A DNA stretch of 64,000 nt from NCBI GenBank assembly GCA_051362555.1, contig CM120647.1:1922001-1986000 (forward strand), read 5' to 3'. Made by a program: the position numbers and the translations under genes. The notes beneath the pieces are model-generated. The model did not search any database. It saw nothing but the letters and a program-made list of their open reading frames with translations, and had not been told where the DNA came from. Within the stretch, counting starts at the first letter, position 1; the number at the start of each line of letters is the position of its first letter. Positions 24,150-62,080 of this stretch are shown here, one piece after another. The DNA is from Lingula anatina (Eukaryota; Animalia; Brachiopoda).

Positions 24150-25731
24150 TGAAATTAAAAAGTCCCTTTGTTTATGGTAGGCGTATGTTATTACGGATGA
24201 GATAGATCTGATATATAAGCAAAGAATAGATAAATTTCATTTATTTTTAAAAACACCAAGTAAACACATTTACTGGAAACTTGATGTCAAGGTCCGTAGT
24301 TACAGTCCGTTGTTAAGTACATGTATTTATCAAAGAGTTTTTTAGAGAAACACCACAGCACGTTTTTCAGTGGATGCTGGGGCTTGGTTGTGTGTCATTC
24401 AGTGTGACTTTCATTCACCAGACTTTATTTTAACTTTTCTTTCTGTTGATTGACTTTTTTTATTTATTCATTTCTTTTTTTTTTTTTCAGTCTTGATTCC
24501 TGTTTTTGGAGCCTTTTCTTCTTTTTCATCTCTCGTTAATTTGCACCTCTTGTTTTACTGTTTTCAGGATTGTTGGGTTTCTGCTTCTCCTTAACTCTCT
24601 GTCAGTATGCACTAATTTCTTTTCTTTACTTTAGTCTTCGTTTTTTTAACTTCTGTGTTACGTGCATTCAACGTATAACGTCTTCCTTACGTGCTTCAGC
24701 AAGATTATCTTTACGGATATTAGCTCTTTGACGTCTTTTTTTTTTTCAAATTATTTTTTGCTCAAAGTAAAATTTTCAAGATCCCTTTTTCTTTTCCTAT
24801 TTGGCTTTTTGTTTATTGTCATCCATATTTGATACTTCATTCACTGAGAGTATAATAAATGTACTTTTAATTATGCATGTACTGAAGTGTTCGTACCGTG
24901 TTCGTACCAAAATATATCATATACATTAATCCATAGAATATGAATCCATATATATACAGTTTATTATTTTGCAATTAGCTATATTTGGCAATATATTCAA
25001 ACCAATATTGTTCATTTTGAATGCAAAGAGTAGCACCTTTACTGATTTTATTTCTTTGCAAAATCTCTTGCCTGACTCTAATTAATCAGTATCACTTTAT
25101 CGAATATATATTTTTATACAATGTTTTTCTAAACATCACAAGACATGAATGCATTTTATATAGTCTAAAACAATATTTTGTACCATATTTTGATGTTTTA
25201 TCATCATTGATAAGTAGCCAGTTATCAATTGGTTAATGTATAACTCGGGGGTACGGACACTACAGTGGGGGTTCGGACACTACATTTGGCACCAAATGTT
25301 TTTCATTGCATTAACAAAAATAAGTAAAATGTGTATCAAAGCCCGTATCTGCAAAATAGTTAAAAGATGTATTTTTCTCAGAACATATCTTTGGATGAAC
25401 CTGCTCGAATAGGAGACAGATGTTGTGGGAATTATATACCAATATCATATTCACCATAAATCACTGACATAAAGAGCTAGTGCATCATCTTTATGACCTT
25501 AATTGCAAATGACCCACCGTAACAGCTAAAATGGGTACTTTTTGAACACATAATTGGCTATATTTTTGTAAATGGTTATCCTATTATTATAATTCTTTTT
25601 TTTTATTTTGCTTCTGTGAAAAGTGTCTTTAATATTAGTCTATCAGCAATCTCCAATTATAAATTGTTAATTTATCAGACACTTGTAACATTCACCACAT
25701 TTAATTGTTCACCCTGATTGTGAAACAGCCG
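24150..25731 (-). mobile_element. Probable DNA-transposon remnant abutting the plexin truncation point (paralogs about 38320-39909, 52545-54156)
   Basis: Decayed Lys/Arg/Glu-rich frame starting ATGGATGACAATAAAC at 24826; short repeated motifs gtgttcgtacc and ggggt(a/t)cggacactaca; family not identified. Confidence 0.4.
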
Positions 25732-60000: not shown

Positions 60001-62080
60001 TATACCGATTATGACTTTTTTTCAATTTATAAAAAGAGCCAATTTAAGCTTTTAAAAATGTACTTAGGTTCATTTCCACACATAACTACACAATCGTATG
60101 CAGGCTATTTTTTCTAGCCCCTTAAGTGCCAGCTCTGTAGCACTCACCTTGTATTTGGTCATAACATACATGTGCTCGCCTGTGCTATCTAACTGTATAT
60201 CTTTAACCTCATCTTTTGACACTTGTACTGATGCATATTCTACCGCAGATGCATTAGACTGGATTAATATCTGAAGACATTAACGGTTAGAAAGTTCACA
60301 AAAGGTTTGTTGGGGCATATTTAAAACGGATGTTTTAAAAAACAAATTTGAACAAAATGTGCCAAAAAATGCTTTAGCTAGAATACATTAAAATCATTTC
60401 CCTATTAAATATACGGTTTTTGATGCCCAAACAAAAACGAGTACTTTGTCAACTTAATACAAAGCTCTTATTTATAATCAAGTTCGCTTTCAGATTAAAA
60501 AAATTAGTAGGTAGGTTTTATCGTACGTTATTAAATCCTGGAAGATAATTTCCATAATTAAACAAACGAAAAATTCGGCCGTGTACTGTTCGCGTATCAT
60601 TACAAGAAAAGCTACAGCTCAGTTGTGCGGTACCTTCTTTAGTTGCCCGTCAGTAGTTCCTACAAAAGCCACAGTGTAGCTGGTGGTGGTTGTGGTGGCT
60701 ACTACTGTCCATGTGGGCCACGTGGCCGTCAGAGCAGGGGTTGTTGTTGCCGGGGTGGTTGACACCAGGGGAGTGTTTACACCGTAAAAGTCATGGCTAC
60801 AGTAGTTTGATCCGTAGTTATATGACTGGGGATGCAAAAGTAGTACCCAGTAAATGTAAAATGCATTACAAATGGCAGAAATATTCTTGTTTATCGAGAT
60901 CCCCCTAAAACAGAATCCACGCACAAATGAAATTTACGGCATTATTTAAAATTAAGAGCACAGCTGTGGTTGAAACAAATAAAAGTAAACTTACGGGTAA
61001 AGAAGCACATGTTCGCGAACCTCCCTGGAAATGTGCAGCCTCAGTATTTCCACTCCCAGAGTAGCACTGTTCGTATTTCTCTTTAATAATGTTGTTTATA
61101 TTCTCCATTGAAAATACACACAAATCTGAACTAGATCCTCTGACAAAAGTTCCCACTAGTACACTATCATTTCCCAGTTTTGTTACCGATACTGATTTTG
61201 CAAGATTGAACGACACGCTCGGATTGGCCCCTGCGCAACGCAAGGGCATTTCGAAGTATGAATAATAGTTTGCATCACTCTGGCAGATTCGAACTAATCT
61301 GGATTCATATTCTGTACTGGTTAGTGTTGTCTTTTGGTTAGTGATGAAATAACTATAACCATCCGAAGAGAACCCAGAAACGTAAATCACTGGATACGTG
61401 CTTCGAACAGTGTCAGAGAGGGTTATGTACGTTCCTGTACCGGACAGTGCGCTGTAGTATGTTAATTCCAGTGTCTGTAGAGATCTTGTACTAACAGCTG
61501 CCACCTGTTCCCGAAGCCTACCACTCTCCCCCTGTCCCGTGTACGTAGACGCCACATATAACACGTCCTGGGAGTTGGGTCCCGGTGCTATAAAAGCCAC
61601 AGTGGAAGCATCGGGAGAATTGGCGGCGACATAATTTTCCAAAAAGTAACCGCCACGATGCGGAGTAACCTGTGATATATCAGTGACTGGTCGAGACTCA
61701 CAAGTACCTTGGTACACGCTACCACAAGATATCAGTTTACCCCCAGACTGGTCTACTACCAAAATTTTGTTGTAGTTGTCTGTGAGTGTTCCGTGTGAGC
61801 AGGCAGAAGGAGGTGGACTACAGTAAGGACTATCCGTGACTGGTCCAGTGGTTGCGTTCTGTAACAGTTGTAAGTCACCATCTAGTCGGTACAGAGTATT
61901 AACAGCTCCAACGTATACAGTCCCAGTCACGTTGTCAATCGCCATGTTGTTAAACTCCACCGTTGTCTGCCCACTTGGATAAGAACTGACAATTGTAGAG
62001 GTGGATGCTTTACCGGCCAGATTGAATACTAGAGCGGAGAGGAATAGCAACGCCACAAACTTACCTCCCGTTCGCTGCAT
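54100..62080 (-). CDS. Plexin copy 4: predicted secreted truncated ectodomain (about 837 aa)
   Basis: Exons 62080-60995, 60825-60634, 60270-60148, 59782-59682, 58506-58380, 57675-57531, 57086-56990, 56031-55917, 55601-55470, 55143-55051, 54786-54687, 54302-54100; sum 2514 nt; same novel C-terminus and stop as copy 2. Confidence 0.8.
55973..56775 (-). repeat. Minisatellite, about 10 x 82 bp, made of splice acceptor + 5' half of PSI2 exon
   Basis: Unit actgtag-gtgtgtgtcctgtaccagcagtagttggg(c/t)ctgtgactggtgtatatatgctaacacgt-gtatgtatgtattatt; 2 units in copy 1 (8317-8460), 1 in copy 2. Confidence 0.95.
59255..59733 (-). repeat. Minisatellite, 7 x 69 bp, made of 3' half of PSI1 exon + splice donor
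   Basis: Unit attgtctggcatccagagatccgttctgtgggtggtgtaatctggagaacaa-gtaagaatattgtaata; 2 units in copy 2 (30653-30785), 1 in copies 1 and 3. Confidence 0.95.
60995..62080 (-). CDS. Plexin copy 4 Sema exon
   Basis: 362 open codons with the same Sema motifs. Confidence 0.92.

Follow-up and report, generated by a model that had tools for sequence, protein, structure and literature searches.

Can the soluble forms of a guidance receptor be encoded by genes of their own? Plexins are conserved guidance receptors that cross the membrane once, and their soluble forms are known to arise by splicing or shedding. The question is raised by 64,000 nucleotides of the brachiopod Lingula anatina (contig CM120647.1 of assembly GCA_051362555.1, positions 1,922,001 to 1,986,000; hereafter the window), which carry four related plexin units in tandem on the minus strand, three of them cut short at the same base. 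The explanation that we consider best, although we hold it tentatively, is that the shortened units are partial tandem duplicates comparable to NOTCH2NL, and that two of them, B and D, would make soluble decoys.

Four plexin units and their common break

The tandem array, claimed in an earlier reading of the same letters (the original prediction), was recovered by self-BLAST, tblastn and exon maps, which started from copy B and in which exon ends were checked for AG/GT. We named the units A (copy 1, ATG 18274), B (copy 2, 33781), C (copy 3, 48311) and D (copy 4, 62080); they are transcribed in the order D, C, B, A, with the three shortened units upstream of the longer copy A, and the junction spacing across the four units is 24,088, 14,178 and 14,247 bases. 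Copy B (25675..33781, minus strand) has 12 exons (33781-32678, 31853-31656, 31290-31168, 30834-30734, 29920-29794, 29099-28955, 28519-28423, 27603-27489, 27176-27045, 26718-26626, 26361-26262 and 25877-25675) and encodes 845 aa. Copy D (54100..62080, minus strand) encodes 837 aa, also in 12 exons (62080-60995, 60825-60634, 60270-60148, 59782-59682, 58506-58380, 57675-57531, 57086-56990, 56031-55917, 55601-55470, 55143-55051, 54786-54687 and 54302-54100). The spacers hold one tRNA-Asn(GTT) gene each, duplicated with the unit (23100-23173, 37313-37386 and 51453-51526), and the last part of the window, 63400-64000, shows homology to the spacers found upstream of B and of C; further units may therefore follow outside the window.

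The units are plexins rather than semaphorins. Exon 1 matches Drosophila PlexA (6fkm, E 3e-48), ranked above MET in the PDB; there are no semaphorins among 24 PDB matches, and IPT domains are present instead. The Pfam Sema match is weak on exon 1 alone and was seen in two of the four copies. After Sema, the order PSI-IPT-PSI-IPT-PSI was found in A, B and D by alignment to the L. anatina proteins P0001 and P0170 and by Pfam (PSI, TIG_plexin, PSI_PlexinA-B, TIG_2). Upstream of the ATG of B, a non-coding first exon is predicted from the sequence at 34169..34270 (minus strand, start undefined), ending in CAG/GTAAGT. A matching segment with this donor occurs in all four units (at 18665 in A, 48725 in C and 62528 in D besides B) and is likely to be the non-coding first exon of each.

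B, C and D depart from the plexin sequence at an identical base of exon 12 (25732/25731, 39910/39909 and 54157/54156), 15 nt ahead of the exon-12 donor of A and after the eighth PSI3 cysteine, with all eight cysteines intact. This position is about three residues ahead of the Pfam TIG start in a homologue, which places the end of the product at a domain boundary. After the break an 18-residue tail is read, RLFHNQGEQLNVVNVTSV, from non-plexin sequence that ends in a stop (25675..25731 in B, also 39853-39909 and 54100-54156, minus strand), and AATAAA or ATTAAA follows 42-68 nt past the stop of the truncated units. As the original prediction held, no further plexin exons follow the truncated ends: the stop lies 18 codons past the break, and tblastn and exon maps over the 64-kb window found no exons for IPT3-6, a membrane helix or GAP between units B-D. 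It might be argued that B and D are variable cassettes spliced to the downstream exons of A, giving protocadherin-like full-length receptors with different Sema domains; exon 11 of B and D is indeed in phase with exon 12 of A, and the tail has two phase-0 GT sites, the phase of exon 13 of A. However, such splicing must skip 24-52 kb including the promoter and exons of A, past poly(A)-like signals, and the tail GT sites fit the donor consensus poorly; no RNA read supports it either, although the stretch to which reads were aligned (24500-30200) is shorter than the span required. This explanation is hardly credible. The first 16 bases of the tail have no inverted or additional copy in the window besides the three junctions. 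Within the window there was thus no sign of a plain transposon insertion retaining its two ends. The tail was not found in database proteins either; three of 11 candidates matched, each over the PSI3 part only.

The claim that copies 2-4 all keep Sema to PSI3 and stop within the PSI3 exon stands for B and D, and the break is common to B, C and D, but C (39853..48311, minus strand) does not keep the whole ectodomain. It is a recombinant unit in which exon 8 (PSI2) is missing: compared with A, about 1.37 kb are deleted near 41405, and joining exon 7 to exon 9 gives a frameshift and a stop at codon 656. Its promoter and codons to 40 are D-like, the part from codon ~121 to exon 9 is A-like and the 3' end is of the B/D type, and we regard C as likely a pseudogene. 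B and D, by contrast, have 12 of 12 coding exons in phase with AG/GT ends and no internal stop, as originally described; the additional nucleotides of B, 18 in exon 1 and 6 in exon 2, are in frame. No 19-residue window of B or D exceeds a hydropathy of 1.6 outside the N-terminus, where a signal peptide was judged by eye and by hydropathy, and no membrane-like segment was found. B and D are thus separate genes with an N-terminal ectodomain and their own C-terminal tail, without a membrane anchor, and they are predicted to encode secreted Sema-PSI1-IPT1-PSI2-IPT2-PSI3 fragments. Part of the array could instead be an assembly artefact in which two haplotypes were placed in tandem, and A and C are allele-like, being 98-99% identical over several kb. 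Nevertheless, the three junction copies are 2.4-3.2% apart, more than two haplotypes give, dS between B and D is 0.17, and C has its own deletion; an artefact is therefore very improbable.

One ectodomain on several tails

Copy A (161..18274, minus strand) remains open over 15 exons and 961 codons without a stop until it leaves the window at 161 (18274-17189, 16988-16797, 14766-14644, 14308-14208, 11967-11841, 11103-10959, 10467-10371, 8376-8262, 7951-7820, 2633-2541, 2276-2177, 1789-1629, 1416-1268, 943-829 and 309-161). It encodes Sema-PSI1-IPT1-PSI2-IPT2-PSI3-IPT3 and the start of IPT4, and the original statement that it continues into further IPT exons (13-15) was borne out. It had also been called the full-length parent: A is longer, but no transmembrane or GAP exon of A lies within the window, and its tail can be judged from relatives. 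The nearest relatives of the window copies are L. anatina proteins, which carry the same ectodomain (80-95% identical) on a GAP tail (P0170/P0314, XP_013416174/3; P0312/3, XP_013421246/7) or on a tyrosine kinase (P0316, XP_013393885; P0174, XP_013413099; P0349); it is also found in P0001 and two fragments. The GAP plexins share the ectodomain and the clade with the window copies but have IPT3-6, a membrane helix and GAP, whereas B-D end after PSI3. B and D would work like plexins but are not plexins themselves, as membrane helix and GAP are absent. The ectodomain of A is 91-95% identical to those of the GAP plexins over exons 4-15, while the kinase-type ectodomains are 75-93% identical to the window copies by segment. 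Exons 13-15 of A are 95% identical to the GAP plexin P0170 and 88% to the kinase P0316; with two proteins per type the values are 95% and 93% against 88% and 87%, and over exons 9-15 they are 93-95% against 86-88%. A is therefore likely, as judged from these identities, to be a GAP-tailed B-like plexin, the L. anatina GAP domain being grouped with mollusc B-like plexins (support 98/99). On different scaffolds, P0170 and P0312 are 99% identical in the tail and 92-96% in the stalk; by this comparison the ectodomain changes faster than the tail even between near-alleles.

In an ectodomain tree of 13 rows, the GAP and kinase forms of Lingula fall into one clade together with the window copies (100/100), which a 25-row tree, built as a quick tree only, also gives. 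Grouping the Lingula kinase ectodomain with Patiria kinase ectodomains was rejected (p-AU 8e-64), as was grouping it with mollusc kinase ectodomains (p-AU 2e-11). The kinase-domain tree groups Lingula with Patiria weakly (84/92), and a grouping with molluscs was not rejected (p-AU 0.31); a recent fusion may, on these trees, also be the source of the Lingula kinase form. As in Lingula, in Patiria miniata the kinase form (P0179, P0097 and P0109 were compared) is 72-76% identical to the same species' two GAP forms, whereas the two mollusc kinase/GAP pairs compared are 25% and 32% identical (Mactra with Mactra; Argonauta with Octopus). A homologue search covering 234-746 aa, shorter than B and D, gave no tailless or Lingula relative among 49 matches (best 42%), and when the range was 677-2000 aa, a single Lingula protein appeared among the best 120 of 166 matches. 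Researchers have named such kinases Met-LP and proposed two origins for them (PMC6374515), which was repeated later (PMC10084454). The Lingula kinases P0316, P0174 and P0349 have the Met-LP kinase tail with an ectodomain as in the window copies, and the accessible main text of PMC6374515 does not include Lingula or describe tailless plexin genes.

How could B and D act within this family? We propose that a partial tandem duplication, probably a single original event, copied exons 1 to 12 of a plexin gene and was cut at the PSI3/IPT3 boundary, and that later exchange among units led to three truncated copies. If transcribed, B and D would be secreted as Sema-to-PSI3 fragments, which would probably bind and damp ligands or receptors of the Lingula family that has one ectodomain on GAP and kinase tails, so that both kinds of receptor would be buffered alike. 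The Sema domain may trap ligand, or there may be a Sema-to-PSI2/IPT2 contact with the membrane receptor; in vertebrate PlxnA, Sema binds PSI2-IPT2 of another molecule and keeps it off (PMC4980550). If so, separately encoded and diverging soluble plexin heads, in an animal that has this head on GAP and kinase tails as well, would make a natural three-way switch (off, on, decoy) and offer an example, open to experiment, of guidance receptors adapted to variable recognition. Ectodomain trees could then also mislead on the number of origins of Met-like kinases.

A broader interpretation, which we regard as speculative and rather improbable, is that Lingula has a paired-receptor recognition system in which one Sema head, reshuffled by conversion and variable on its semaphorin-binding face, sits on a GAP tail, on a kinase tail or on no tail (the secreted B and D). 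Paired-receptor families have near-identical ectodomains on different signalling tails, and this feature is seen in Lingula, where near-identical ectodomains occur on GAP, on kinase and on no tail. Such families would further have ectodomains that conversion between old lineages keeps similar, where exchange is seen here among the window copies, and opposing outputs to a shared, variable ligand. The sharing between GAP and kinase forms in Patiria would then mean that the two origins reported for Met-LP could in part be a product of concerted evolution. Searches of the open-access literature gave no paper that links plexins with both gene conversion and paired receptors nor, as judged from titles and the opening of abstracts, any study of Lingula plexins.

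Selection, exchange among units and transcripts

The dN/dS check that had been suggested among the copies gave values well below 1 (0.24-0.35 in all six unit pairs); between B and D, dS is 0.172, dN 0.061 and the ratio 0.35 (bootstrap 0.27-0.47). Private changes are non-synonymous in 31 of 61 cases in B (p 4e-5) and in 30 of 64 in D (p 1e-6), against a neutral expectation of 75%. The ectodomain tree places B and D as sisters (94/95), and the simplest history is therefore that truncation preceded their split. Of 48 codons of exon 12 by the break, 7 differ from A synonymously and 5 non-synonymously, a divergence that suggests an old break. The original claim of secreted soluble versions thus fits B and D in anatomy, splice sites and dN/dS; it does not extend to the broken C, and nothing in the analysis pointed to the immune, mucus or shell roles that had been suggested.

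The RNA evidence consists of four of nine available runs (X1, X2, X4 and X7; about 6% of X1, X2 and X4 and 25% of X7 were used) aligned at 86% likeness to 24500-30200, with exons 1-4, copy D and the 3' exons of A outside this range; the differences and loose ends given here are among 40 of 446 and 23 of 89, respectively. All seven introns from exon 5 to exon 12 are supported by read joints, three of them exactly and four displaced by mismatches, and in stranded runs the exon reads are in the direction of the gene. RNA thus confirms the gene model and the expression of the family. Nearly all of the reads nevertheless stem from alleles or paralogues other than those of the window, and the proposed check by copy-specific letters was limited accordingly. 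Only 4 of 998 reads are at least 99% alike to the window, and the letter common to A, B and C at 29027 is missing in all 132 reads, so that RNA does not test these alleles. A glycine letter of the kinase-type and P0001 proteins at 26705 is found in 29 of 29 reads in X7, 2 of 17 in X1, 0 of 8 in X2 and 3 of 4 in X4. Two exon-12 sites, 25757 and 25749, separate the truncated units from all full-length relatives seen; 2 of 36 and 2 of 32 reads, respectively, are without the full-length letter (by subtraction one each in X2 and X4, sense), and may be of the truncated type or have a third letter. RNA loose ends fall exactly at 25731, which means that the tail sequence has different neighbours elsewhere, and 25 X7 tail reads run past 25731 into other sequence with an agreement of 0.56. 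The tail is therefore probably repeat sequence that ends at the break, and its read depth (antisense in X1) is not evidence of expression. A short interspersed repeat at 29290-29350, in intron 5 of B, also has many unrelated RNA reads with varied flanks.

Several observations weigh against soluble decoys. In the RNA, the private letters of B are missing in 75 of 75 reads at 27563 and 54 of 54 at 27581, the full-length letter is present in 34 of 36 reads at 25757 and 30 of 32 at 25749, and 16 X7 reads splice exon 12 to exon 13; transcripts of B and D are neither shown nor excluded. In the predicted proteins, B has lost one conserved PSI2 cysteine while gaining two cysteines, and D carries arrays of exon fragments. 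One of these arrays (55972..56770, minus strand) has 9.7 copies of an 82-bp unit comprising the acceptor and 5' half of exon 8, of which A has two copies at about 8317-8461, where the second acceptor is needed to keep the frame; the other (59255..59733, minus strand) has 6.9 copies of a 69-bp unit with the 3' portion of exon 4 together with the donor, of which B has 1.9 copies (30652-30784). The head-to-stalk contact is conserved in vertebrate PlxnA but much less in other plexins (PMC4980550), and the Lingula family is B-like. In exons 9-12 alone, the B-D ratio is 0.46 on 16 changes. The region around the junction looks young, while the 5' introns are far more divergent. C is an A-type 5' part on a truncated end, and the selected 5' parts of B and D may likewise stem from full-length genes. 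Lastly, the units are recombination mosaics, which makes dN/dS weaker as proof of function after truncation; neither this mosaicism nor the presence of the ectodomain on kinase receptors was part of the original prediction.

These points lead to the most serious alternative, namely that unequal crossing-over left B and D as by-products without function, their 5' parts having been imported from selected full-length alleles or paralogues and not yet decayed. C is such a hybrid (110 informative sites fall in 6 runs, and none of 20000 shuffles was as clumped) and is already broken, truncated-type reads are almost absent, and junction-side divergence is only 2-4%: it is lowest in the tails (2.4-3.2%, 29-39 of about 1200 sites) and in introns 10-11 (1-4%), also relative to A, whereas B and D are 9-20% apart in their 5' introns (alignments of intron 2 to that of A were left out as unreliable because of a transposon). 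The B and D branches are also relatively richer in amino-acid change than A (61 of 125 against 36 of 97), but at p 0.10 this relaxation is not significant. By-products are difficult to reconcile with both frames and all splice sites being intact, since 4.7 frame-shifting indels between B and D are expected from the non-coding rate near the junction and none was seen (P 0.009, although homopolymer indels inflate the expectation), nor do they agree with the sister grouping of B and D and the apparently old break; the scarcity of truncated-type reads counts for less, as the RNA animals do not have the 29027 letter. We therefore consider by-products somewhat unlikely. Two histories fit the pattern of divergence, judging from the alignments: an old truncation with a homogenised 3' part, which would mean selection on truncated genes, or a junction to which 5' parts of full-length genes were joined recently, which would imply no such selection.

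Sites with at least three states, counted over A, B, D, P0316 and P0001 with the signal peptide excluded, are concentrated in Sema residues 201-385 (33 of 185 against 29 of 616 elsewhere, p 1e-7); because exon 1 has the highest synonymous divergence as well, this clustering is no proof of positive selection. The variable stretches include a loop aligned with A396 of mouse PlxnA2 (numbering counted by hand), the offset of which was checked against residues D193 and F221. In mouse PlxnA2, A396E abolishes Sema6A binding (PMC4938514). Another possibility is that the truncated units serve mostly as silent donors, cassettes from which Sema variants would pass to the membrane receptor by gene conversion. 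Chicken immunoglobulin pseudogenes provide the analogy. The tandem position upstream, the strong mosaicism, the concentrated Sema variation and the KGTP motif of C, which is shared with P0001 and not with A, are in agreement with donors, but a promoter-side exon, the splice sites of eleven introns and poly(A)-like signals are kept in each unit, which donors do not need. We consider donor cassettes unlikely.

Known soluble receptors, and repeats in the array

The kind of gene to which B and D come closest is the receptor gene that has been duplicated in part and has gained a new tail, exemplified by NOTCH2NL (PMC6092419). Both are tandem-type 5' partial duplicates of a receptor gene, with an N-terminal ectodomain and a new C-terminus, and both are predicted to be secreted; however, NOTCH2NL derives from another receptor, its expression and action have been demonstrated and it raises rather than damps signalling, whereas B and D are known from genes. 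Soluble Sema-PSI forms of RON inhibit RON, and the RON/MET splice forms (RON-delta85, PMC3405059) resemble B and D as soluble Sema-containing fragments, but are spliced from one gene, while B and D are separate, sequence-diverged genes. An expanded invertebrate cluster with a PSI motif is the 49-copy "plexin domain-containing" cluster of Schistosoma (PMC10900676), the members of which are small PSI-only membrane proteins, unlike the Sema plexins here. In agreement with the original prediction, a gene-encoded soluble plexin array was not found in the open-access literature, supplements aside (those of PMC6374515 might list truncated plexins). Among plexins themselves, a secreted plexin-B1 splice form is also a soluble Sema-containing fragment.

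The introns and spacers of the array contain several repeats. Intron 9 of A holds a DIRS-type tyrosine-recombinase retroelement (2876-7740) with Pfam matches to reverse transcriptase and recombinase, a broken reverse transcriptase frame, inverted terminal repeats and an internal complementary region. An insertion with perfect 31-bp terminal inverted repeats lies in intron 2 of A (14824-16490) and is absent from C; its longest frame had no Pfam match. The spacer upstream of B contains a decayed Tc1-type transposase (35890-36780; HTH_Tnp_Tc3_2, DDE_3). A 184-bp tandem repeat with inverted copies occupies intron 4 of A and C (12580-13970 and 44360-45680). Intron 7 of the same two copies carries a partial second exon 6 with an acceptor but without a donor (9485-9657 and 41508-41681), which could act as a poison exon.

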